The notes under the pieces: generated by a model
Seen by the model: only the letters and a program-made list of their open reading frames with translations
What the model was told of the DNA's origin: nothing
Database searches by the model: none
DNA from: Craspedostauros australis
Taxonomy: Eukaryota
Assembly (NCBI GenBank): GCA_030167865.1
Contig: JALAGF010004219.1
Coordinates: forward strand, 1 to 64,000
DNA: 64,000 bases
Direction: 5' to 3'
Shown: positions 1-28,037 of the stretch, in pieces
Numbering within the stretch: position 1 is the stretch's first letter
How the letters are laid out: every line of letters starts with the position of its first letter
Made by a program: the position numbers and the translations under genes

Positions 1-3000
1 TTTGGACACAGAGACATCATCTGGCGTTTGCTGGGATTCGATCCCGACAACGTGTGTGCTCGCATCCAAAACAACGATGGGAACACGCCCCTCCACCTGG
101 CCTGCCGCAAAGGTTACAGAAACGTGGTCAATACGTTGATTCAATCCATCCACAACAACAGCACAACCAATACCGCTGTCAGCATCGACATCAATCTTCA
201 GAACAAGAACGGTTGGACACCGCTACATTACGCGTGCCGAAAGCGACACAAGGATGTGGTTGAATACTTCCTGCACCTCAATCGCAACGACAGCCATATC
301 CATGCCAATTTCGACACCAAGGACCACCTTGGCAAGACGCCGTTTGAATGCGTTGCAGAAGGTGACGAGGAGTGGATCCGTTCTTTGGTCGCATCCTATC
401 TGGTCAACCAGGAAGGGCGCACCTCGTTCGCTGGCAATGATGAGAAGAACACCGCGCTTCATCTTGCCTGTTTATCAGGACTTCTAGAAGTGGTGCGCGC
501 TCTCGTCGAATCCACCAAGATCTCGGTTGATGCCAACGCGAAGAATAGCCTGGGGTACACAGCATTGCATTATGCGTGCCAGAAAGGACACACAGATGTG
601 ATCGAATACTTGCTACAGTCCGATCGTGTGAGCACGACGTTCGACCTCTCCATCCAGAACACGGATGGAGATACACCCCTCCACCTTGCCTGCTGGCGCG
701 GAGCCGAAGAAATTGTGCAACTCCTGTTGAGAGAGAAGCGACAACGAACTGACATCGATATCAACGTCACCAACAACAAAGGCAACACGCCTTTGCATTA
801 CGCTTGTTGGCGCGGTCACACAGGCGTAACGAAGAATTTGATCGAGTCAGAGACACCCGTCATCAATGTGAATGTTCAAAACAACCATCTGGACACGCCG
901 CTTCACCTCGCTTGCCGGTATGGACACAAGGACGCGGTGGAATACATGACAAAGTCACAGATTGCCAAAGTGAACCTCGATGTCCGCAACAGATTCGGAA
1001 ACACGCCATTCCATGTCGCCTGCGTATCTGGACATGAAGATCTCGCCAGGTTTTTGGTGAATTCGCAACAACTCAACGTTGACATCGAAGCTGAGAACAA
1101 GAACAAGAATACGCCGCTTCACAGTGCCTGTCGTCGTGGGCACGATGGCGTTGCCGACTTCTTGCTGGGGCTCGATCAAGGCACCAGCAACGGCGGTGGC
1201 GGTGGCAACGCACCCAACAACAACGGAAACACACCGCTGCATGTTGCGTGCCGGCATGGCAAGAGACATGTGATCGATCGCATGCTGCAGCATCTTCAAG
1301 AGAAGGTGGATGTCAACGCGAAAAACAAGAACGGAAACACGCCGTTGCACGTCGCCTGTTGCCACGGACGGATAAATGCGGTCCAGGACTTGATCCAGTA
1401 CATGTTCGAATGCAACGACTGCAAACCTGTTGATATCAATACCCCAAACAACAAGGGATATACGCCACTGCACTATGCCTGTCGAAACGGCCACATCGAC
1501 GTCGTGAAACGCCTCATCGAATCGGATCAAGCCGACGTTAACGTCAACATGCAAGACAAGAATGGCGATACGCCAATTCACCACGCGTGCAGGAAACGGA
1601 AAAGGAAGGTTGTTCAATGCATGATGGAATCTGATCAGGCCGATATTGATCTCAACATCAGCAACTCTCGGGGCGATGTCCCGCTTGGTGTTGTTTGCAA
1701 CAACAGAGACGCAAGTCTTGCAGAGCATCTCATCAAGTTGAAAATAGCTGGAATTGACTTTGACTCAAGCAGACATGGGCAAATGAACATCGTTGACCAC
1801 CTCGTGCCATCAAAGCAAATCCACATCAATATCAATATACAAGACGAGCATGGGTACACGCCGCTCCATTACGCGTGCCAGTATGGGCACAAGGAGGTCG
1901 TCGAATTCTTGTTTGGATTTGGCGAGGACGCCGTCAACTTCAACATCGGAAACACGAACGGCGATTCACCTCTGCATCTGACATGCCGATACGGACAACT
2001 CCTTGTCGTTCAATGCATGATTCAGTTGGATGTGAACCGTAGAATCGATTTTGGCATCTTCAACAACAACAGGTGCACGCCAATCCACCTTGCATGTGAG
2101 AACGGCCACCGGGCTGTGGTTGAGTGCCTCGTGGAATCGCGTCGACAAGATATTGATCCGAATTTACATGACCACAACCATAACACCCCTCTTCATTTGG
2201 CATCCAGCGGCGGATACTGGAAGGTGGTTGCGCACCTGATGGAATCCAGTTGGATCAATGTCGATGTCGTTGCCCGTAACTTGGATGGCGACACGGCGCT
2301 TCATGTTGCTTGCCAACACCAGCATATCAAAGTGGTGCAATACATTGTGCAATCGAGTCAGGCAAACGTCCGCGCCAGTGTCAACGTCAGAAACTTCAAC
2401 AATGGAAACACACCATTCCATGATGCCTGCAGTTCTACGCAAATCGACGTCGTTCGTTGTTTGGTGGAATCAGACAAGCCCAACATCGATATCAACGCCC
2501 GCAACGACAAAGGCGAGACAGGACTGTACCTTGCCTGTTGGTTTGGGAACATCCCGGTAATCAAATACTTGCTCGGCGTGGATTCAGTTGGCACCAGGGT
2601 TGACGTGACCATCTCCAACAACGATGGACGCACGCCATTGCACATAGCGTGCCAGCAAGGCCACAGGAGTGCGATTAAGCTCCTCGTGGAATCCAATCTG
2701 GAGGCTATCAACACCATCATCAACAGCCAATCAGAACAAGGCGACACCCCCCTTGACCTCGCTTGTCAATACAGACGCAAAGACGTGGTCGAGTACTTGA
2801 CAGGTCTGCGTGGCAACGGCATCAACATACAATATGAGGACACGCCGCTGCACCATGCGTGTTGCCGTGGCCAAGTAGAGACCGTTCAGCATCTCATTGA
2901 GTCCGTTGGATTCAATACTGATCTCACGACCACCGATGGCAGAACCGGGCTCCACTGCGCTGCTCGCTACGGACAAGACGAGACCGTGCAGTATTTGATC

Positions 3001-4713
3001 GGCGCAGCCAATATCAACATCAACATCAACGCCCAAGATAATGACGGGAACACCCCGCTGTATCTTGCCTGCCGGGAGTATGATCCGGGATTCGTCGACG
3101 GCCATTGGGAAGTCTTTAACCTGCTCTTGCAACAACCGCAAATCGATGTCAACATCGTCAATCAACAGCACCAAACACCGCTGATGGAAGTATGCAAGCA
3201 GTACACACCCGAGAGTGGGTACGTCATCTTCATCAGAGGACTCTTGAACGCAGGCGCGGACGTCAATATCGCAGATGGCGACGGCAACACGCCGTTGCAC
3301 ATCATCTGCCAGGGCGGATACTTCAAGATCTTCACAGACCTGGCTCGTGCACAGGGCATCCAAATGGATGTTCGGAACAATGCTGGCCAAACGCTGCTGC
3401 ACATCGCTTGCAGCAAGCAAGAGTCCTCGGATCTGGACTATACGGGAGGCGACGACTGCCAGTACTATGCCATCATCCATCACCTTCTGGAGAAAGTGGG
3501 CATCTCCGCCAATGATGAAGATAACGAGCGCAACACGCCACTACACTTCATGTGCTCTGCCGAATATGCGTGTGTTGATGGAATCCGGCACCTTGTGAAG
3601 AAATGGCAAGCTCGTGCTAACGTCACCAACAGTGCTGGTCAAACTCCATTGCACCTTGCATGCATGCAAGGGAATCTCGAGGTGGTGAAATTTTTTGTTG
3701 GGGAGACAGATGTGGGCGCGGACGACCCGGATAGCGCGGGCCAGACCCCGTTGCACTTTGCGTGCGTGCGCGGACGCGTTGAGGTGGTGAAACATCTGGT
3801 TGAAGAGGCAAATGCTGATATCAATACTCAAGACCAGCAAGGCTACACACCGTTGCTCCTTGCCTGCGGATATGAACGGCTTCATGTGATCGAATATCTC
3901 ATCGCACAAGCCAACCTTCACATTGATGCTCGGTACAGTAACGCAAGCACGCTGTTGCAAGTCGCAGCAGCTCGTGGGCACCTTGACGTGATGAAACGCC
4001 TCCTCGAGCTTCCAAACGCTAACATCAATGTCCGGGACGCCCTGGGACACGCACCTCTGCACTTTGCGTGCGCGAGTGGGCACCTTGATATTGTAGAGTA
4101 TGTGACTAAAATTGAAGGTGTCGATGTCAATGTCCAGAATAGTGGGGGCAACACCCCGCTGCATCTCACCATCCAGTGCTATCGTGATGAGAACAATGGA
4201 AGCTACAGAAAGATACTCAACATCTTGGTGAACACAAGGCAGATCAGAACCAACCTGACCAATAGGAGAAACGAGACTCCGTTGCTCATCGCGTGCAAGA
4301 TATTCTCGGCTGTCAACGACATCTTTGCCGTTGTCATCGAAGTGTTGGTGAAAGAAGGCCACGCAGATGTCAACATCGTCGACATCGATGGCTACGCGCC
4401 TTTGCATGTTCTGTGCTGGTACGGGCGTCTCCAGATGGTGCGAGATTTGATCAACACGCCAGGTGTCCAAGTGGACATGAATATCCGGAATACGTACGAC
4501 TGGAGGCCTCAGGATGTTGCTGCGATGAGAGGACATGCTGAGTTGGCAGAGTACCTCATATCATTGCAACCAGCGCAGAGCGAAGAGCAAGCTGGACGCT
4601 TCCATCGTGGAGACAACAGCGCTCAGGAGGACGGGGTCAATACGTGGGAGCATGTGGGTCACGTGGCTCCTGAATCTGCCAATTCCAGGAGCACAGGTTT
4701 TGGAACTCCCTGA
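1..4713 (+). CDS. Very long ankyrin-repeat protein (5'-truncated by the window edge)
   Basis: Frame is open from base 1 (FGHRDIIWRLL...) to TGA at 4711-4713. Dozens of tandem G-x-TPLH-x-AC...G...VV..L ankyrin repeats; no intron needed. Confidence 0.93.
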   Translation, partial: FGHRDIIWRLLGFDPDNVCARIQNNDGNTPLHLACRKGYRNVVNTLIQSIHNNSTTNTAVSIDINLQNKNGWTPLHYACRKRHKDVVEYFLHLNRNDSHIHANFDTKDHLGKTPFECVAEGDEEWIRSLVASYLVNQEGRTSFAGNDEKNTALHLACLSGLLEVVRALVESTKISVDANAKNSLGYTALHYACQKGHTDVIEYLLQSDRVSTTFDLSIQNTDGDTPLHLACWRGAEEIVQLLLREKRQRTDIDINVTNNKGNTPLHYACWRGHTGVTKNLIESETPVINVNVQNNHLDTPLHLACRYGHKDAVEYMTKSQIAKVNLDVRNRFGNTPFHVACVSGHEDLARFLVNSQQLNVDIEAENKNKNTPLHSACRRGHDGVADFLLGLDQGTSNGGGGGNAPNNNGNTPLHVACRHGKRHVIDRMLQHLQEKVDVNAKNKNGNTPLHVACCHGRINAVQDLIQYMFECNDCKPVDINTPNNKGYTPLHYACRNGHIDVVKRLIESDQADVNVNMQDKNGDTPIHHACRKRKRKVVQCMMESDQADIDLNISNSRGDVPLGVVCNNRDASLAEHLIKLKIAGIDFDSSRHGQMNIVDHLVPSKQIHININIQDEHGYTPLHYACQYGHKEVVEFLFGFGEDAVNFNIGNTNGDSPLHLTCRYGQLLVVQCMIQLDVNRRIDFGIFNNNRCTPIHLACENGHRAVVECLVESRRQDIDPNLHDHNHNTPLHLASSGGYWKVVAHLMESSWINVDVVARNLDGDTALHVACQHQHIKVVQYIVQSSQANVRASVNVRNFNNGNTPFHDACSSTQIDVVRCLVESDKPNIDINARNDKGETGLYLACWFGNIPVIKYLLGVDSVGTRVDVTISNNDGRTPLHIACQQGHRSAIKLLVESNLEAINTIINSQSEQGDTPLDLACQYRRKDVVEYLTGLRGNGINIQYEDTPLHHACCRGQVETVQHLIESVGFNTDLTTTDGRTGLHCAARYGQDETVQYLIGAANINININAQDNDGNTPLYLACREYDPGFVDGHWEVFNLLLQQPQIDVNIVNQQHQTPLMEVCKQYTPESGYVIFIRGLLNAGADVNIADGDGNTPLHIICQGGYFKIFTDLARAQGIQMDVRNNAGQTLLHIACSKQESSDLDYTGGDDCQYYAIIHHLLEKVGISANDEDNERNTPLHFMCSAEYACVDGIRHLVKKWQARANVTNSAGQTPLHLACMQGNLEVVKFFVGETDVGADDPDSAGQTPLHFACVRGRVEVVKHLVEEANADINTQDQQGYTPLLLACGYERLHVIEYLIAQANLHIDARYSNASTLLQVAAARGHLDVMKRLLELPNANINVRDALGHAPLHFACASGHLDIVEYVTKIEGVDVNVQNSGGNTPLHLTIQCYRDENNGSYRKILNILVNTRQIRTNLTNRRNETPLLIACKIFSAVNDIFAVVIEVLVKEGHADVNIVDIDGYAPLHVLCWYGRLQMVRDLINTPGVQVDMNIRNTYDWRPQDVAAMRGHAELAEYLISLQPAQSEEQAGRFHRGDNSAQEDGVNTWEHVGHVAPESANSRSTGFGTP

Positions 4714-8648: not shown

Positions 8649-11600
8649 ATGAAGTGGGGACACACGTACAGTGCATTCACCGCCGCTCTGGCGGCATCCT
8701 CATTTGTGATCCCGCAAGGAGCAAAGGCCATGTTTGCTGAAGATGCGGGCACCATCGATTTCTTGATCGCCACTCCGGGCCATGCCGTGACGAGGTTCGT
8801 GCATCCGCTGCAATCCGAGCCTGCCTTCATCACGTCAGATGCAGATGGCATGGCCGATCGCACATCGTGCTACATCTCCAAGCGATCCGCGACAGACGGG
8901 AGCGTCGCATGGAGACGCAATGCCTGTTCGGGGCCTTCCGCGGATCAGAACCATGCCGTGTCGGCCGATGGAGACTTCGTCTTCACCGTCGATCAATCCG
9001 GCATCTTGCGTGCGTGGGCAGCCGCAGACGGCGCTCTGCTTTGGGACGCGGACGTTGGGTCGGCGGGAAGCCCTCGCGTGTGGACCTTCCGCGATGCTGG
9101 GGGAAACATCTTCGTGGCTGGTGCGGCAGGCGAGAACATCGTCATCATCAGCGCTGAGGGGCAGACCATCGGGGACATCACCATGGAGACCGCGCTGGAT
9201 CACGTTGCGCAATCCACCAAGGACCCCAACACCGCGGAATGGTTGCACGTCATCCCAGCACCAAATCACATCGGTGCCATCCGAATCATCTTCGGCATCC
9301 TTTCGCCGAACGGAGTTTTGGTCAAGAAGCCCATCCTGTTGGAGGTCGACATCAGCGCCAAAGCCATCACATTGGGTCAAAGCCGTGTTCTCGGAAACTC
9401 CAAGCCGAACGTTGTGGCGAACTCGCTGACGAGCCTCGAGAATGACGAGAGCTGGAACATCGTGGCCCGCACCGATGATAGCGAGGAGGCGATTGAATTC
9501 AGCATCGACAGTTCCGAAGTCTCCGACGTTGTCGCCACCAACGTTTGGAGCAAGCTGACTGCGGACGTCTATCCGATCGCCGAAGAAAAGGCGGAGCAGT
9601 TGCAGGCCGCCACGTACTGCAAGGAGATGGATGCCATCGTTGGGTTGAGCGATGGAGCCATGAAGGTTTGGAAGACTTCCGGCGGTGATCATCCTGTCGA
9701 TATGACAGGCGATGTCTACCAACCTGCGCCAAGCGATCTCCCTCTCACGACCATCTCTCTGCTGGCATGCGAAACCAACACGATGCGAGTCCTGCTGACG
9801 TCGGAATCAGGAACAGCGACCGCCGTTGCTCTCGATGTCACAGACAACGGCGTGAAGTCGGCCATCGAATGGACCAGCGAGGATGGTCTGGCGACCGTCT
9901 CGTCTGCCATCATGCTCGACGGAAGTCACATGGGATCGGATGATCTGGTGGGAGAGCAGGCGGAGCTTCTGAATCGCCTATCTTTTTCGTCACGCCTCGC
10001 GTCGCAGATCGAAAGCGTGACATCTGCAGTGTCGGCTCGATTGACCAACGCGGGACGCAAGGATCACGCCTTCGGTTTTGTGAAGGTGGCAGCGTTGCTC
10101 TCGCAGTCGACCCATCGAGTGTGGGGCATTGACACTGCAGGTAGCAACAAGGGCACCGTCAAGTGGATGCTGGATCTTCCCAGAGCGGCAGACCGGCATG
10201 TCATGGTGCACGGGACCAAGAGTTCCAAGTCGGCCGTTCATGGTATCAACGGAGGAACCCACAGCCGCGAGATTCTCGTGCTGTCGTTGGAACCGCAGCA
10301 GGTGTCGTGGAACTGCATTGACGGGACGAACGGCGAAAGCCACGCCAGCGGCTCTATCGCCGTTCCCTCATCGGTTGTTCAGATCTCGCCAATTTACGGA
10401 TCCAGCGAATTGTGCCGTCAAGGAGCTTTGCTGCTCCACGATGATATGTCCGTGACCACGATCCCCGATGATAACCAACTCAAGGCACACTTCGCTCGAG
10501 AAATTGCCGAGCTTGACAACGGCTTTTTCGCTCACGTCGTCGACCGCGATGATAACAAGGTGGAGTCCGTCCAAATCAAAGCCACCGGCGATGATTCCTT
10601 CGCCAGCAGCCCCGTCGGCCAGACCAGATTTGCCGGGGAGCAGATCGTGGCCGTCACGTACCCCTTGCGCGATGAGATCATCCAACGGATGAGCACCGTG
10701 CTCGGCGACAATTCCTTGCTGCTCAAGTACATCAATCCGCACCTCGTCGCCATCGTGACAGTGACGGCTGATGATGCAGCAATCGCCACCAAGGAGGGGG
10801 ATCTTGCGTCCTCCATCTCCAAGCCTCAGGCCTCCACGAAGCGCAAGCCAGCAGGCGTGGGTAGCGACAGCGGCACCAGCGCAGAAGTCGTCAACAAGCC
10901 GAATCTGTACGTGAACCTCGTCGACACCGTCACAGGCCGTATCGTCCACCGCACGAGCCACGTGAATGCCGATCCGACGGCGAAGGTGTGCATCACCATC
11001 TCCGAGAACTGGGTCATCTACACCTTCGTCAACAACAAGTCGCGACGCACCGAGCTGGGAGTCCTCACGCTCCATGAAGGCATGATCGACAGCAAGAGCT
11101 TGACCGCGTTCTCGTCTCCCGAGCAGACCACATCCTTCTCCAGCTTCAGCATGAAGGAATCCAAGCCAGTCGTGCTCTCCAAGCTTTACACTTGGCCCAA
11201 GGCGGTGACGGCATTGGGATCGACGGCAACCCGTGACGGCATCAGCGCTCGCCAGATCTTGTTTGCGACCACCGATGGGAAGATCACGGCCATTCCACGT
11301 CAGATGCTGGAAACTCGCCGACCCAATGGAGAGCTCAAGCCAGCTGAGAAGACAGAGGGTCTAGTGCGGTAAGTGAATTGAAACGGGATGGAATTGGTTG
11401 GTTGAAGTTGAATGTGTCAACGCGTGCACGTGAGAGTACCTGGATGGCGAAATGGATGTTGACATTGGATGGTGACATGGATGACAACTTGCTTCACTCG
11501 TGCTAGTATGACATCGCGCCATGATCTTCCAATCTCACACGGTCTCCCCTACAAAACTGCCGTTGCATGCACCAATGCGCCCACGCATCGTCTTCATCCT

Positions 11601-11927
11601 CTCGGAACGATTCTACGCTCACTTTCTCGCAGTTACGGCGAACTGATCCCGATGGTGCCTCTCATGGCACTGAGCTACAATAACACAGTGGAAGGCGTGC
11701 GCAGTGTGCTCTGTATCCACACAGGACTCGAATCGCAGTCTCTGATGCTGGCATTCGGCGGACCGGACATCTTTTACACCCGAACATCTCCCACAAAGGG
11801 CTTCGATTTGTTGCCGGAGAGTTTCAGCCACGTCCTTGTCTCCATTGTGACGGTTGGTCTGCTGATCGTCGTCGTGGTGGTGAAGAAGATGTCGACAAAC
11901 AAAACAATCAAGCAGGGCTGGACGTAA
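8649..11927 (+). CDS. EMC1: ER membrane protein complex subunit 1; exons 8649-11368 and 11633-11927
   Basis: Signal peptide then MFAEDAG..D, PQQ-like propeller, VLGDNSLLLKYINPHL, ENWVIYTF. Intron GTAAGT(11369)..GCAG(11632), phase 2. C-terminal TGLESQSLMLAFGGPDIFYTRTSPTKGFDLL, TM helix and terminal W. Confidence 0.92.
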
Positions 11928-16363: not shown

Positions 16364-17012
16364 GAGAGAGAGAGAGAAACGAGATTCGATGAATTGCTAT
16401 CGAGCCACTCCACGCAGTTTTGCATCAGTGATTTAGAATGTACGTGAGCAGAGCATAATAGAGCGAAGTGATCTGTCCAAAAGTTCGCCGTGGGTTAGTT
16501 GTTCAATGTAACAGCCGTGAGTGTGGGCGCGGGTGCGATCTGCTACTGCCGATCGCGATGGTTTGCCGATCAATCCTCGTCTATCGTGCCCTTGTTTGTG
16601 GATCTCACTTAGTCCCTTCGTCTTTATCGCAGTAACGACACGACCGCGTTGTATCCTGGCACATCACGGGGTTTTCCCTCGTGTTTGCGATTGCGATGGC
16701 TGCGATTGTTCATTCCAAGCGGCCGCTCTCTCTCTGGAGTGACCACCCATGCGCCTCCTGCCGTTCCTCCTTTGGCGTACATATCCAAGGTGGTACCCAA
16801 GGTGGCATCCAAGGTGATCACGTCAAGAAGTACACACACGTCGTGCCGTTCGCTTCGTTGCTGTCTTTCGTTCTATTTCTTCCTTCCATCCTGCTCGTCA
16901 TGCTGAACTCTCCATGTAAATACTAGCATGTGCCTCCATTCCTTCCTTCCTTCCGTCGTTCCCCATTTTCGTTCAGACCGCTGCATCGCGGCGCTCTGAT
17001 CGTCTCCATTCT

Positions 17013-17652
17013 CTATTTCGATTTCGTGGGCGCGTTTTCCTGACGTGCCGCATCTTGCAGCAGCTCCGTGTCGACGTGCTCTGGCGGGATCTGAATATAC
17101 CGAATGACGCTGCCTCGCACGAAGCAGTTCTGCAGTGCGCAGAGCTGCGGGTACTTGTCGGGGTTGACGATCTTGACATTCATGAGCTTGACGTTGAGGT
17201 ACTGGTCGACGCTGTGCAGCGTGCCCGTCATGACGACGTCGTTCTTCAGTTCCACGGCGATCTCCTTGCCCACGAGGGTCTTGAAGAAGGAGAGGAAGAT
17301 CTGTGGGGTTCCATTTGGTTCGATGATAATCGGTGCGATGATGCAGGGTAGGATCGTGCATGTCGCAGTGATTTCGTTGTCGGTGTCGTCGATGTTGTCG
17401 ATATCCATGTCAATATCATCAAGAAGACAGAGATGGACGAGGAGGAGGACGAGATGAAGTGTGAGAACAAGTGCTTCATTGTGCTTGGAGGTGGTTTAGT
17501 GATTGGCGGCTGATTGACGACTTCTTGATGCGATCTCCATGTCTGCAAAGCACCGATCAAGCGTACCCGTACTTGCAGGTCGGTTGTGCGGAATGTAAGC
17601 GATGCTTGTCCATCAGCCGCCTTCCGCAATGGCACAAGTGGAGACTCACCAT
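17013..17652 (-). CDS. LSM2: U6 snRNA-associated Sm-like protein LSm2; exons 17652-17650 (ATG only) and 17300-17013
   Basis: IFLSFFKTLVGKEIAVELKND...GTLHSVDQYLNVKL...NCFVRGSVIRYI...DTELLQDAAR. Minus-strand ATG|GTGAGT donor at 17649 and CAG acceptor at 17301. Confidence 0.93.
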
Positions 17653-17983
17653 ATTCCGATTCAAAGGTGTTATAGTTATGCGTGGTAGTATCTGTCGGTT
17701 CCGCTTTCCCACGAAGGATCTTCAAGGATTTGCGAGGCGAGTGATGCGATGTGATGTGATGTGAATGGGGTCTTCAAGTGGATGGTTGATTGCTCAGAGT
17801 TGGTGGGGATTCCTCAGCAATTCGGGCCTTGGGCGCGGGATGGGTTTTCGTGGTGGGAGGATGTGTGGATGCCAGATGCGGTTGTTTTTGTTGGGTGGTT
17901 GTGGGTGGAGATTGCTGAACGAAGTCCATTTGATTGATTAAGTAGCATAATTTCGCCAGGGAGAGTTGGAAAAGCACTGAAAC

Positions 17984-18063
17984 AGCCCAAGGTCGTGGGT
18001 TCGACCCCCATCTGGAGCATCCATGTGCTCTTGTAACTCAGTGGTCAGAGTGTGGGTCTTATG
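17984..18063 (+). tRNA. Circularly permuted tRNA-Ile(UAU): 3' half (pos 38-73) at 17984-18019, 7-nt spacer, 5' half (pos 1-37) at 18027-18063
   Basis: Rejoined sequence GCTCTTGTAACTCAGTGGTCAGAGTGTGGGTCTTATG|AGCCCAAGGTCGTGGGTTCGACCCCCATCTGGAGCA (73 nt) folds into a full cloverleaf: acceptor GCTCTTG/CTGGAGC, D stem ACTC/GAGT, anticodon stem TGGGT/GCCCA, T stem GTGGG/CCCAT, TTCGA loop. Anticodon TAT at 18060-18062. Confidence 0.92.
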
Positions 18064-18070
18064 AGTGCTG

Positions 18071-18103
18071 TTTTGCATGAGCGTCTTTTCGCTCCCTCTT
18101 TTT
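18071..18103 (+). terminator. Candidate RNA polymerase III T-run terminators for the permuted tRNA
   Basis: TTTT at 18071-18074 right after the trailer helix, then a GAGCG/CGCTC hairpin and TTTTT at 18099-18103. Confidence 0.5.
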
Positions 18104-19379
18104 GTGGCGGCAGATTGATATCACGCTGACTTTGTCTTGTCGGCAACAAGCCCCCTCTTTTGTTGTTGAGAGTTGAAGGCATCGCCCCAAACATGCCATA
18201 GTTTATGTCTTATAATAGTTCCATTGCGATATTGCTCTGCGTGCGCGCCGAGGAGGAGACTTTCCAGAGAACTTGAGAGACTATATATTTTGTAGAATAT
18301 TTGTAGTGTGAGATCTCGTGCTCAATCTTTATCGCAGAAGGGATCACTCTTTGTTGTCTTCCGCCCTGAGGCGATTGCCGTGCTGCGCGCAACTTTGGAA
18401 TCCTCACGTCGCTGCTCTGCGACGCAAGGAACCTCGCCCAGGTACCACCCATCTCCTGCCTTGGGCGTTCCATCATCACACGGCGCGAGAATTCTGCTCC
18501 TTCGTGGCTTCTCGGTTTCGAGAATTGTCGAATCTTCCACTTCATGCCTTTTCGAGAATTGGCGCGAGTGTTCCTGGTCGACTCATACGACTAACGGACC
18601 CACAATTCTGGTTGATGATGTACTTCTGTGTGGAGCGTCACAGCCATCGCACTTTTGGGAGGTGGACAGAAGAACGAGAGAAGTTCTCGATTTGGTTGAC
18701 ACATCAACCTCAGAATCATCCACGATCGTCGTGGCGATCATCATCACGGCTCCCTCGTTTTGTCATTACCTGTCCCTCGTTGTGTCTCACGTTGAGCTGC
18801 ATCCACACACGCAGTCACATAAACAAAGACGTTCCGTCCCCTCCCTCCTGCTGCCGATCCCCCCTGTTCACGAAATCGAGAGCGCCACCCAACTCGACGG
18901 AGGCAGAGGCCGTCCAACTACGCACATTTGGTCACAACCACGCTACTGGTAATTTGCAGGACGTGTTGCACACAGACACGCACATTCTCCTTCTCAGCAT
19001 TGAGTGCGTGGCGCATTCCACCAAGTCATCACCGTTGCTATCATCATCGCGATTTGCAACGACAACACCACCACCATCGTTTCAGGCATCGTCGGTACCG
19101 CCTGTGCCAGCAGAGAGGCCAAAGCAGAACCATCAGCATCAACAGAATCTCTTCATCGAACTCTGAAGAGGAATCGGTGATTCGGTTGACACAACAACGA
19201 GACCGCCCTCCGACCCAGGATTCCTCAATCACCAACATTCCAAAGAACATTTCTGACGGAGCAGTGTGAGATAACCCTCCTCTGCTCGACTCCAAGCCAC
19301 TCTACGCCATCCTATCGCATCCCATTATACTTCATATTACACGAATCTTCTGCGGTCGGCAACACCCGCAACACCCAAG

Positions 19380-22075
19380 ATGAGACCGCCATCCATCTCG
19401 GCGACCATGCTCTGGTGCATGTGCACCATGGCGCCACGGTCCTCCGCTTTCCTGGGGACGCGAGCAACCCGCAGGAATCCGCACACGCAATCGCAGCAGT
19501 ACCCATCACAGCTGCATCAAAAACAGCAGCAGCAGGAACGACAGCATCACGGGCTATGGCAGCTGGGACAGCAGCAACTCTCGGCGATTGATTCCAAGCA
19601 ACTCAGATTCTTGGATGATACACGGATCAAATCTCAGGAGGCCAAACAAGTGCAGCGGCAGCAGGCAGAACAAGATGGAGATGACCAGGAGCTGTCGCCG
19701 TTGACCGGCGCCGCCATCTCATCATCATCGCAGTTACAAGCGCACACGCATTCGCTGGCGCAGACTCAACCTTCCAGAATAATTCCCAACGCATCCGTCA
19801 ACCAGCTGCTTGGCACTGACATTGGCACGGCCAGCAACGATACCCACGCCGACTTTTTCGAAAGCAACGACGGCGAAATCGACGAACTAGCATTGACGAT
19901 GCTATCGAATCATCCCAAGCAAGCGTACGGACCGTCGTTGAATCTAACGGACGATGAGAGAGACCTCTTTCGCCTGCTGAGAGAAGCAAAGCAGAATACC
20001 AACGTCTCCACAACCCTTCGCGTTGCCGGCGGCTGGGTTCGGGACAAACTCCTGGCAACTCCAGAATTCTCCCAGCCATTGGCGGAGCCCATCGTCGAAC
20101 GCCTCACCTCCAAGTTCAAGGGATCGACGGGTGGGGCCAGTCTGGGCCGGCAGGGCACCAAGGTCCTGTCGGCGAACAGCATCGCGCCCGTAGACATCGA
20201 TATTGCACTCGATGACATGCTCGGCCGGGAGTTCGCGGACCGGCTCAATGAGTACCTGTCGGGGAAGGGAGAAGAGACGATCAGCGTCGGCGTGGTGCTC
20301 AAGAATCCAGAAAAGTCCAAGCATCTGGAGACGGCCACAATGAAGGTCGGCTCCTTCTGGATCGACTTTGTCAACTTGCGCGCCGAGCAGTACGCGCAGG
20401 ACAGCCGCATCCCCGATCTCATGCGCATCGGCACGCCAGCCGAGGACGCCTTCCGCAGAGACTTGACCATCAACACGCTGTTCTACAACATCAACAACGG
20501 CATGGTGGAAGACTGGACGGGACGCGGCTTTCATGATCTCCAGAGAGGCGTCGTCGCCACGCCGCTGGCTCCGCTCACCACCCTCCTGGACGACCCGCTG
20601 CGCACCCTGCGGTCGGTTCGCTTTGCAGCGCGCCTCCGCTTCACCATGGACGAAGCCTTGCTCGACGCCGCCAAGAACAGCCGCGTGCGTCAGGCCTTGG
20701 CCGAGAAGGTCTCGCGAGAACGCGTGGGCGGTGAGATCGATCTCATGCTGCGCTCGCCCGATCCGGTGGGCGCCATGAGGCTCCTCATCAACCTGCAGCT
20801 GGTCACCACGGTCTTCCCCACCGAGGGATTGTTCGCTTTGGAGGAAGGCAAGGACGCGGACATGTTCCGCTCCGGCCTTGACCTCCTCTCCACGACGCAC
20901 GACCATCTGTGGGAATGCCAGCTGAAGCCGCCGGTGTGGTGCGACTCCAAGAAGTCCTACACGACGCACGGCGTTGACGAACGCACGCTGATGCAGGACG
21001 AGGAAGCACGGCGGTTGTTGTGGTACGCGGCATTCCTCAAACCGCTGTATGACCACGCTAGTAGCCTCCCCACCAAAGCCAAGAGCGCGCGGCAAGGCAA
21101 GAAGGCCAAACGGTCCATCACCTGCAAGCTGCTCGTGGATGAGCTCAAACGGCCCGTGCGCGACGCCGAGGCGATTGAAAAGATCATGAAGGCTGCTGAC
21201 GATTTTGGCGTTTTGTTCGACAGCGGCTGCGATCTTTCCGCGGTCTCCATCCTTCTCAGCAAAATTCGGGTCGCGGATGAACCGACGCAGAGCGACGAAC
21301 AGCGGAATGGGGTTCCGGACCATGTGTGCTTCATGAACGGCCGTGAAGTCAGCAGCACGCAGGAGGAGGATCCCGTGTGGAAGCATGCGATGGAGTTCCG
21401 GCTGCTCTGTTCCAAGGTCATGAACCGAATCGGGCCGCTCTGGAGAGCAGCGCTGCTGCTGTCGTTGGCGGAAGAGCTCCTGAACATCGAGGAGGAACTG
21501 GATTACACCATCGAAGGTGACGTTGTACGTGCCATCATATCATCATGCATGAACGTGGATATGCAGAATGCCCGAAAATTGCACGGAGATGTCAGGTTAT
21601 CGTTGTGTGCGTCTTCTTTTGTCTTGAGTGGTCCTCTACGGATGACATGTACGCTGCCATCTCTCACCCCATTTCGGCCCTCTTGTGTATTTTTGCGCTG
21701 TGCTGCAATTGGTGCTCCACGTATGAATGGTATTGCATGATTGCGGCGGACAACTGATACTGATGCAATAAACTCGCACACACTGATATGCGCACAACGC
21801 AGTTCCACGAAAGCAAGATGGAGCGCCGACAGGGCATCATCGATCGGTACAACGCGTTCGCGGTGGCGCTGCAACGCATAGGCCTCGTGGGTATTTGGGG
21901 TGAAAAACCGCTGATGGATGGCGGCAGCATCAAGAAAACCCTGCCGTCGATACCCAAGGGACCAGCCTTCCGCGATGTCATGGACGAGCAAACGAATTGG
22001 ATGACGGCGCATCCTGGTGCGCACATGGAGCTCCTGCAGGAGCACCTGGAAACGACATTTGCGGAGTACCGATGA
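19380..22075 (+). CDS. CCA1: tRNA nucleotidyltransferase (class II CCA-adding enzyme); exons 19380-21524 and 21803-22075
   Basis: LRVAGGWVRDKLL, DIDIALD, KHLETA, IDFVNLRAEQY..DSRIP, GTPAEDAFRRDLTINTLFYN, LDDPLRTLRSVRFAARL, KVSRERVGGE. Intron GTACGT(21525)..GCAG(21802). Exon 2 has KPLMDG and KGPAF..VMDEQ..W. Confidence 0.92.
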
Positions 22076-26408: not shown

Positions 26409-28037
26409 ATGCCACGCGAGATCATCACTTTGCAGGTGGGCCAGTGTGGCAATCAGATCGGGGGTGAGTTCTGGAAGCAGTTATGCTTGGAACACGGGAT
26501 CACGCCGGAGGGAACTCTGCGAGATCCGTGGGAAACCTCGCATCAGCAACAGCAGCAGCATGGCAACGGTGGTCACAGCAGCCTGCACTCCAGCCAAGCG
26601 CAGGCGAGCGGGAACATTCCGCACAGCACCAGCTCGGCCTCGTCGTCGTGGAATCAACCGCAATCGCACGGACATCATCCCAGCCAGCCGCACCTTCACC
26701 AGGCAGGGTCGTCATCGACAACCAGGGGCCCGCTCGTGGATGATCGCAAGGACGTCTTCTTTTACCAATCCGATGACGATCGCTACATACCAAGGGCGTT
26801 GCTCATCGATCTGGAACCCCGCGTCGTCAACAAGCTGGCGCACAGCGGTCCGTACCGCAAGCTCTTCAACCCGGAGAACCTATTCGTCGCGCAGGAGGGA
26901 GGCGGCGCCGGCAACAACTGGGCCAGCGGCTTCGGGCAGGGTGAGGAGCACTACGAGTACGTTCTGGACATGATCGATCGCGAGAGCGACAACAGCGACT
27001 CGTTGGAGGGGTTCGTGCTGTGCCATTCCATCGCGGGAGGAACGGGAAGCGGCATGGGCTCCTACCTGCTGGAACGCCTCAACGACCATTTCCCAAAGAA
27101 GCTGGTGCAGACCTACTCCGTCTTCCCCAGCTGGACCGATCAATCGGACGTCGTCGTGCAACCCTACAACTCGCTGCTCACATTGAAGCGTCTCACGCTC
27201 AACGCCGACGCCGTGGTCGTACTGGACAACACAGCACTAAATCGCATTGCGACGGATCGGCTTCGGATAGAAAACCCGACCGTGGATCATCTCAATTCCC
27301 TGGTCGCCACCATCATGGCGGCATCCACAACGACCCTGAGGTATCCCGGCTACATGAATAACGATTGGACCGGCCTTCTGGCATCGCTGATCCCGACTCC
27401 ACGTTGTCACTTCCTCATGACAGGATACACTCCGTTGACGCTGGCGGGTGAGCAGTCAGTGTCTGCGCCTGGTGGCGGCGGCGGCGGTGGCGGCGAAACA
27501 GAGCAGGGCGTACGAAAGACCACAGTGCTGGATGTCATGCGACGTCTCACCCAGCCAAAGAACATCATGGTCTCGGCGAACACCAGATCCGGCAGCGGCT
27601 GTTATATCTCCATCCTCAACATCATCCAGGGCAACGACATCGACCCAACGCAAATCCACAAGGCGTTGCAACGTATTCGGGAAAAGCGGCACATGGAAAT
27701 CCCGTTCATTCCGTGGGGACCGGCGAGCATACAGGTCGCCCTGGCCCGCAAGTCACCGTACCTCCAAAACAGGCACAAGGTATCCGGTTTCATGCTGGCC
27801 AACCACACCTCGATGGCCGAACTCTTCGAGCGCTTGCTCAAGCAGTACGATCGCATCAAGAGCCGCAATGCCTTCCTGGATAACTACAGGCGGGAGGCCG
27901 TCTTTCAAGATTCGTTAGACGAGTTCGATGAATCACGCGAGGTCGTGCTGAATTTGATCGAAGAGTACAGAGCCTGCGAACGTCCCGACTACGTCCAGTT
28001 CGGCATGGCGCCGCCAGCACCACCTGGGGGGATGTGA
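26409..28037 (+). CDS. TUBG1: Gamma-tubulin with low-complexity loop insertions
   Basis: [103 protein letters not shown]. Confidence 0.97.

Follow-up and report, generated by a model that had tools for sequence, protein, structure and literature searches.

Gene order and cloverleaf at the locus

The 64-kb window analysed here (64,000 nucleotides of the Craspedostauros australis contig JALAGF010004219.1, to which all coordinates refer, on the + strand unless stated) contains the two halves of a tRNA-Ile(UAU) gene in reversed order. The 3' half is situated upstream of the 5' half on the same strand, and a short linker separates them (Table 1). This is the arrangement of a circularly permuted tRNA gene, a term reportedly defined by Soma in 2007. 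The sequence agrees exactly with the original prediction, made from the letters of the window, which had placed the 3' half, the linker TCCATGT and the 5' half at these positions.

Table 1. Coordinates of the tRNA halves, of the predicted precursor and transcription signals, and of the two neighbouring genes.
Feature	Position	Strand	Remarks
3' half of tRNA-Ile(UAU), positions 38-73	17984..18019	+	36 nt; 3' strand of anticodon stem, variable loop, T-arm, 3' acceptor strand, discriminator A; from sequence, ARAGORN, covariation and covariance model
Linker (intervening sequence) TCCATGT, from A73 to G1	18020..18026	+	7 nt; without T-run and without CCA directly after A73
5' half, positions 1-37	18027..18063	+	37 nt; 5' acceptor strand, D-arm, 5' strand of anticodon stem, loop C32-G37; from sequence, ARAGORN, covariation and covariance model
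Anticodon TAT (UAU), reads AUA	18060..18062	+	ARAGORN on the re-ordered halves
Leader strand of outer helix h' (AGCAC)	17973..17977	+	Pairs with trailer 18065-18069; 5 bp
Leader strand of central helix H of the bulge-helix-bulge	17978..17981	+	Faces anticodon-loop positions 35..32
Predicted 3-nt bulge A-C-A38	17982..17984	+	Predicted 3' cleavage site between 17983 and 17984, from the bulge-helix-bulge rule
Predicted 3-nt bulge U36-G37-A(18064)	18062..18064	+	Predicted 5' cleavage site between 18063 and 18064
Trailer strand of outer helix h' (GTGCT)	18065..18069	+	Precursor fold, covariation
TTTT, likely RNA polymerase III terminator	18071..18074	+	8 nt after the 5' half
AT-rich word ATAATTT, possible TATA-like promoter element	17947..17953	+	31-37 nt upstream of the 3' half; weak
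LSM-domain gene, spliced	16392..17774	-	Intron 17301-17649; syntenic anchor, outside the tRNA gene
PolyA_pol-family gene (tRNA nucleotidyltransferase / poly(A) polymerase type)	19380..21740	+	Syntenic anchor, outside the tRNA gene

When the halves were swapped by a script, ARAGORN recognised a tRNA-Ile(tat) of 73 nt with a complete cloverleaf, as had been predicted. Two features of this tRNA had been missed in the prediction, namely a single mismatch in the cloverleaf, U6.U67, and a G instead of an A at position 37 (18063). The CCA end is not encoded, A73 being followed by T, as is the case in eukaryal permuted genes. The codon that the tRNA would read was said to be in use, and in fact AUA accounts for 19 of the 240 Ile codons in seven open reading frames (ORFs) of the window supported by Pfam.

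As encoded, the gene escaped the standard scanners, which the original prediction had anticipated: ARAGORN found zero tRNA in the 64-kb window, and no Rfam family was matched in it at the gathering score. A permissive Rfam scan of positions 17900-18150 gave two sub-threshold matches to RF00005, one on each half, with 19.1 and 13.6 bits. As a control for chance, 170-nt chunks were duplicated head to tail, an arrangement in which a permutation at 37/38 resembles an intron to ARAGORN. When scanned in this way, the window gave this tRNA as its sole locus (in 7 overlapping chunks), and nothing was found in three shuffles of the window.

Relatives in metagenomes

Metagenomes were scanned with a pattern taken from the 5' half alone (D-arm to anticodon), in which the anticodon stem and position 37 were left free, and which therefore could not favour permuted over ordinary genes. 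At least 121 matches on at least 119 loci were obtained, and the following counts refer to the 121 matches listed. Contiguous tRNA-Ile(UAU) genes made up 76 of them, with A at position 37 in 64 cases and G in 12. The permuted order was present in 23 matches, all with G37. Five matches were of intron type (position 37: 1 A, 4 G), one of these being the upstream copy of a tandem permuted pair at locus L047. No 3' half was found for 12 matches (7 A, 5 G); this class takes in L006, L020 and L100, whose later scores with a covariance model mark them as permuted copies that are atypical or degenerate. The remaining five were cut by a contig end (2 A, 2 G, 1 unreadable). Including the window, there are at least 24 permuted instances and at least 21 distinct sequences, 20 of them besides the window; L053 duplicates L009, L115 duplicates L025 and L050 duplicates L026. 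In what follows, "the 21 loci" are these distinct sequences.

An assembly artefact fusing parts of two ordinary tRNA genes had been raised in the original prediction as a general possibility, with nothing more to favour it. The recurrence of the same layout on at least 23 independent metagenome loci, in many assemblies and with species-specific linkers and flanks, speaks against it and makes its probability practically negligible.

The genes next to the permuted tRNA also recur. The LSM gene (compared over 17016-17495, minus strand) adjoins it in L025/L115 and L093 (89% amino acid identity), L117 (85%) and L009/L053 (80%), and the PolyA_pol gene (19275-21737) follows it in L115 (65%) and L117 (60%). 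The tRNA gene has therefore kept its chromosomal place across species as divergent as these. The PolyA_pol-family gene found in conserved synteny 3' of the tRNA encodes a PolyA_pol head and an RNA-binding domain; that a gene for an enzyme of the tRNA-maturation type adjoins an unusual tRNA gene may be a coincidence. A distinct variant of the tRNA is carried by L052, L022 and L058. The named relatives of the AP-1 gamma adaptin encoded on L052 are all diatoms, centric and pennate, at 58-63% identity to all of them, so that L052 stems from a diatom lineage other than the named ones.

Several loci depart from the single permuted gene. At 1830-2089 of L047, on the minus strand, two permuted Ile genes follow each other in tandem at a distance of about 160 nt. 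Both have a T-run and an AT-rich upstream stretch of their own, and ARAGORN can also take the 5' half of copy 1 together with the 3' half of the second copy for a single gene whose intron measures 78 nt. This tandem has the layout that has been proposed for the evolutionary step between genes with introns and permuted genes. L006 and L020 (three model matches each) and L100:3966-4066 hold the element, in arrays or singly, in a form in which the T-arm or one side of the anticodon stem is degenerate; these copies are probable pseudogenes. Loci L114 and L119 share the 5'-half motif, the D-arm and G37, and have ordinary introns at 37/38 of 31 and 24 nt; L062 is similar, with an intron of possibly 120 nt. 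These three are candidates for the ancestral form of the gene.

A second permuted gene was observed at L080:1443-1524, on a contig that also carries a permuted Ile gene at 103-201. Its halves, when re-ordered, give a 73-nt tRNA-Arg(ACG) whose break is likewise at 37/38. The linker measures about 9 nt, the trailer contains a T5 run, the acceptor stem includes three G.U pairs, and leader and trailer form a weak helix. This sequence suggests that diatoms hold more than one permuted tRNA species.

The loop that ligation is predicted to give, CTTATGA, is also present in contiguous genes of L015, L019 and L090, whose tRNA-Ile(UAU) is identical to the re-ordered tRNA of the window at 64 of the 73 positions, with 70.2 bits against RF00005. 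Their contigs have about 30% GC and carry tRNA clusters and a giant-virus-like gene set (RNA polymerase Rpb2, UvdE, NUDIX and collagen-like/endosialidase-chaperone proteins; Pfam was run for this set on L090, L015, L024, L104 and L039). The CTTATGA junction was also found on four IMG/VR contigs (L120-L123), one of which is labelled as a giant-virus metagenome-assembled genome. Contiguous tRNA-Ile(UAU) genes with the G37 loop occur within tRNA clusters in L024, L039 and L104 as well; in L015, L019 and L024, where this was measured, agreement with the re-ordered tRNA extends to 58-64 of its 73 positions. The contigs of this whole group have about 25-37% GC. Viruses may have taken the tRNA from algal hosts as a copy of its mature form.

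Transfer RNAs reading ANN codons normally carry A37/t6A (t6A, N6-threonylcarbamoyladenosine). G37 is present in all permuted genes, in the virus-borne relatives and in the intron-type genes of L114 and L119; most of the prokaryote-like contiguous matches have A37. Since G37 is shared by contiguous and intron-containing relatives, it is a trait of the family and not a sign of decay.

Precursor structure and transcription signals

The 21 distinct sequences align readily. The 5' half is almost invariant from U8 to G37, and the anticodon loop CTTATG is invariant in 21 of 21 loci. Covariation was analysed on the whole precursor structure in genomic order (31 pairs, 21 sequences, 500 column shuffles). 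Standard pairs filled 86.3% of the cells, as compared to 75.5% in the column shuffles and 31-50% when registers were slid by 1-3 columns. Changes on both sides were observed in 15 of the 31 pairs, and on none of the five measures did one of the 500 shuffles come up to the observed value; better guides here than the shuffles are the count of independent pair types and the control with slid registers. Pairs changed on both sides number five in the acceptor stem, which forms only across the linker, two in the anticodon stem, which extends over the entire gene and is 100% paired, and two in the T stem. The D stem never varies and has no such change. In the outer helix h', formed by leader and trailer, all six pairs have changes on both sides across the 21 loci. 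Two non-pairs of the acceptor stem (alignment columns 42/68 and 45/65) are conserved and not corrected; they could be identity or processing elements, or editing sites.

A covariance model was trained on the 20 metagenome sequences, with the window left out. At E ≤ 10 it gave one match in the window, at 17972-18071, full length, with 96.9 bits (E roughly 2e-28). On 123 loci the model gave 24 full-length matches of 86.6-108.5 bits, which are the 20 training sequences, three identical duplicates and the second copy of L047. A second tier at 38-62 bits comprised L100 and L006/L020, and matches cut by contig ends were found in L071, L068 and L002. All remaining matches reached 49 bits at most, and at least some of them lie in tRNA clusters (for example in L024, L019 and L039).

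These results bear on the possibility that the locus is what a tRNA rearrangement has left behind, a pseudogene in decay that yields no working tRNA. The U.U mismatch in the acceptor stem and the atypical G37 would be in keeping with decay, the evidence is at the level of DNA, and degenerate copies do exist in L006/L020 and L100, at 38-62 bits. Yet 20 further distinct versions are intact, with compensatory changes spread over four helices; the neighbouring genes have stayed the same, their proteins being 60-89% identical; the anticodon loop does not vary and the terminators are conserved; and the window copy, at 96.9 bits, stands in the top tier of the model. We consider a relic very improbable.

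The junction was compared with the canonical bulge-helix-bulge (BHB), which has two 3-nt bulges, each cut after the second base, and a 4-bp helix between them (PMC3978253). In silico, leader and trailer are predicted to make up a BHB with the anticodon loop. In the window, three of the four pairs of the central helix H can form, loop positions 33-35 pairing with leader 17978-17980, and C32 stands unpaired opposite the A at 17981. Three to four of the four pairs are present in 21 of 21 loci, and in 20 of them the leader has a G at -3, opposite C32. A run of at least 4 bp of the outer helix h', in strict register, was found in 9 of 20 true leader-trailer pairs as compared to 4.5% of cross-paired controls; the mean run was 2.85 vs. 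0.82 (Mann-Whitney p = 2.9e-8), and the energy of the leader-trailer duplex was -10.2 vs. -7.2 kcal/mol (p = 0.003). In the 114-nt window precursor, the fold of minimum energy includes the anticodon stem, the helix of leader and trailer, and the acceptor stem closed by the linker. The BHB geometry and the ARAGORN call on the re-ordered halves both place the break at 37/38, where the original prediction had put it.

With its arms in the encoded order (T-arm, acceptor, D-arm), the transcript might also be a tRNA-like non-decoding RNA comparable to YrlA, a Y RNA-like tRNA mimic. The YrlA family (RF02553) has the same arm order and gave a sub-threshold match at 17979-18077 with an E value of 0.029, its 21 bits comparing with a gathering score of 69. 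However, both strands of the anticodon stem are kept together with a 7-nt loop that holds the invariant UAU, the stem covaries, and the flanks form a BHB of the splicing type exactly at 37/38. Moreover, YrlA-type RNAs are known from bacteria and phages. A role of this kind can hardly be expected of the locus.

Signals consistent with a single transcription unit, its upstream element being weak, enclose the two halves. A run of at least four T begins no more than 27 nt after the 5' half in 19 of the 21 loci. The linkers measure 4-14 nt (median 7, 21 loci); TTTT is present in the linkers of 0 of 21 loci, and one linker of 21 starts with CCA. Upstream, the A+T content is 67-75% at -50 to -31 as compared to 50-57% at -25 to -6 (21 loci). 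A regular expression found a TATA-like word in 16 of 21 loci, the window being outside those 16, and this count is weak and uncontrolled. A split tRNA gene of the trans-spliced Nanoarchaeum/Caldivirga type was rejected, as the halves are 7 nt apart, their order is conserved and no terminator lies between them.

The same signals bear on other routes of maturation, in which the halves would be joined in trans, would remain as a nicked two-piece tRNA, or would be brought together by read-through of tandem copies spliced like an ordinary intron-containing gene. Tandem copies do occur: the L047 pair can be read as one gene with a 78-nt intron, and L006/L020 hold three copies. The window and most loci, however, have a single copy with no 3' half downstream, and the T-run found 8 nt after the window 5' half, and likewise between the L047 copies, should stop RNA polymerase III. 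The linkers of 4-14 nt hold neither a terminator nor a promoter-like signal, and a tRNA nicked in the anticodon loop is not expected to decode. Taken together, we regard such routes as improbable.

Host, maturation and place among permuted tRNA genes

The window encodes eukaryotic nuclear proteins, namely EMC1, ATG11, WD40, gamma-tubulin, Saf4/Yju2, translin and an LSM protein. Contigs of one small sequencing run skip stretches of 233-349 nt with GT..AG ends, and the genome therefore has spliceosomal introns. The same run, whose type is uncertain and which resembles a spliced transcriptome elsewhere, has no contig over 17876-18509, and this bears neither way on expression. The closest named relatives, by identity, of the gamma-tubulin ORF (26409-28034) are raphid pennate diatoms (Fragilariopsis 82% over 78% of the query, Pseudo-nitzschia 80%, Nitzschia 79%, Cylindrotheca 78%); centric diatoms have about 69-72% identity at full coverage. 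The top two entries by bit score are long mammalian ones, with 67-68% identity over 72-78% of the query. From this identity and coverage the host is a diatom, and on sequence evidence most likely a raphid pennate one. The spliced nuclear genes and the gamma-tubulin uphold the diatom/stramenopile nuclear genome that had been predicted. A Cyanidioschyzon host, suggested by the GC content and the long ORFs, was ruled out by the introns of 233-349 nt, by the diatom gamma-tubulin and by the Ile(UAU) gene of that alga, which differs and is not permuted. Cyanidioschyzon lacks introns like those of the window genome.

Elsewhere in the window, an open frame of more than 1,560 amino acids at 1-4710 runs off the window start and consists nearly entirely of ankyrin repeats. 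The EMC1 gene (8649-11924), whose family identity was confirmed by a protein atlas, seems to be interrupted by a short intron: the ORF that ends at 11372 closes with positions 1-118 of the EMC1_C profile, which continues with positions 119-214 in the ORF 11463-11924.

We conclude, from the sequence comparisons and with a probability of about 0.85, that the locus is a functional, conserved, type II (37/38) circularly permuted nuclear tRNA-Ile(UAU) gene of a diatom. Several observations weigh against this conclusion. The acceptor stem of the window tRNA has the U6.U67 mismatch in the ARAGORN structure of the re-ordered halves; 16 of the 21 loci share U6.U67 as a non-pair, and 9 have C3.A70. G37 beside a UAU anticodon is unusual. 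The locus as encoded does not reach the RF00005 gathering score of 29 bits, as is expected of a permuted gene. The 21 sequences are kin, so that the shuffle controls overstate significance. In 11 of 20 loci the outer helix falls outside the strict register; in these (for example L026, L069, L093, L105 and L117) a relaxed helix-bulge-helix (hBH) and a more distant leader-trailer helix were judged by eye. The precursor fold is no more stable than those of shuffled sequences (z = -1.0), and the upstream TATA-like signal is weak and uncontrolled. Diatom origin holds for the window, for L052 and, by synteny, for six loci, and was assumed for the other contigs. Finally, the gene order, the potential for cloverleaf and BHB, the covariation, the terminators and the synteny are observations on DNA, and the mature tRNA and the circle are proposed by analogy.

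In the proposed pathway, RNA polymerase III would start just upstream of 17972, aided by the AT-rich upstream element, and would stop at the T-run 18071-18074, giving one transcript with the 3' half, the 7-nt linker and the 5' half. In the folded precursor, a cloverleaf, the linker would close the acceptor stem. The leader would pair with anticodon-loop positions 33-35 (helix H) and with the trailer (h'), forming the BHB. The tRNA-splicing endonuclease would then cut after G37 and before A38, and a tRNA ligase would join G37 to A38 in an 80-nt circle. RNase P and tRNase Z would excise the linker and CCA would be added, yielding a 73-nt tRNA that reads AUA. The RNA steps are proposed because of the analogy with Cyanidioschyzon and prasinophytes (PMC3978253, PMC4033280). 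Homologues of Trl1-type ligases are reported from diatoms (PMC4090602). In yeast, Pus1 makes pseudouridines 34 and 36 of tRNA-Ile(UAU) in a way that depends on the intron (PMC9602550). By analogy, the helix H between leader and anticodon could take the part of the intron in pseudouridylation, and this would explain why the BHB at 37/38 is kept even when the gene is permuted.

A 2014 review tabulates the 34 permuted tRNA genes known at that time, from six algae and one archaeon, with intervening sequences of 1-74 bp; none of the 34 is an Ile(UAU) gene and none is from a stramenopile (PMC3978253). As the original prediction had stated, permuted tRNAs are known from Cyanidioschyzon, prasinophytes, a chlorarachniophyte nucleomorph and Thermofilum (PMC3978253). 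The available portion of a 2026 review of algal tRNA genes covers the same lineages, again with no stramenopile and no Ile(UAU) (PMC13578239), and a 2025 preprint adds permuted genes of Auxenochlorella (PMC12633428). The PlantRNA 2.0 preprint annotates two heterokontophytes and mentions permuted genes for a rhodophyte alone. Within the searched literature, much of it represented by partial texts, no permuted tRNA gene from a diatom or other stramenopile and no permuted Ile(UAU) gene was found, a mention in supplements or in Maruyama et al. (2010) being possible. The earlier statements that no diatom report was known and that the lineage may be new agree with these sources. What is new is the lineage and the isoacceptor, the mechanism being one already known.

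The closest likeness is to the type II genes of the prasinophytes Ostreococcus and Micromonas and of the Bigelowiella natans nucleomorph. These also have their junction at 37/38, a hBH/BHB formed by leader and trailer, no encoded CCA, an AT-rich upstream region and a downstream T-stretch; their intervening sequence measures 5-64 bp, as compared to 7 here and 4-14 in the relatives (PMC3978253). Unlike them, the present gene resides in the nucleus of a stramenopile, a diatom, and specifies Ile(UAU), and it is kept in synteny across divergent species. Cyanidioschyzon follows the same gene logic, with an upstream TATA-like element and a T-stretch as here, and it is there that the circular intermediate, the processing by RNase P and tRNase Z and the aminoacylation have been demonstrated. 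The junctions of C. merolae lie at 20/21, 37/38, 50/51 and 59/60, and some of its genes have extra introns, whereas the junction here is at 37/38. The tRNA-Ile(UAU) gene of C. merolae is not permuted, has three introns and differs from the window in the primer sequences (PMC3728597). In Auxenochlorella and Thermofilum pendens, as here, the halves are reversed and standard scanners miss the genes (PMC12633428, PMC3978253); both belong to other lineages, and T. pendens also differs in its junctions at 59/60 and its encoded CCA (Chan et al., 2011, as given in PMC3978253).

Canonical intron-containing tRNA-Ile(UAU) genes of eukaryotes have their break at the same 37/38 position. In the predicted precursor the anticodon loop pairs with sequence outside the tRNA (helix H), much as it would with an intron. 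The intron is here, so to speak, turned inside out into leader and trailer, and splicing would close the RNA into a circle and not take out a piece from within. Relatives with introns or in tandem agree with the route that has been proposed, in which an intron-containing gene is duplicated and then becomes permuted. We give even odds to a wider proposal, in which diatoms as a group inherited the permuted Ile(UAU) gene from a time when their major lineages had not yet diverged, depend on it for their supply of this tRNA, and hold several permuted genes, among them at least Arg(ACG) besides Ile(UAU).

It is rare for an essential RNA to be encoded in permuted form, as these tRNAs are, and diatoms are stramenopiles and major primary producers of the ocean; conservation of the gene across diatoms widens the known range of the mechanism. 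Since standard scanners miss the permuted gene, diatom annotations that rely on scanners only probably lack Ile(UAU). By analogy with the known systems, the splicing endonuclease and ligase of stramenopiles would have to handle circularising substrates. If the proposal is true, diatoms would be the first nuclear lineage outside red and green algae in which translation depends on circularising pre-tRNA splicing, and this kind of gene may have arisen independently from an intron-containing ancestor or may have come with the genes of an algal endosymbiont. Model diatoms would offer a genetically tractable group in which to ask why permuted tRNA genes persist.

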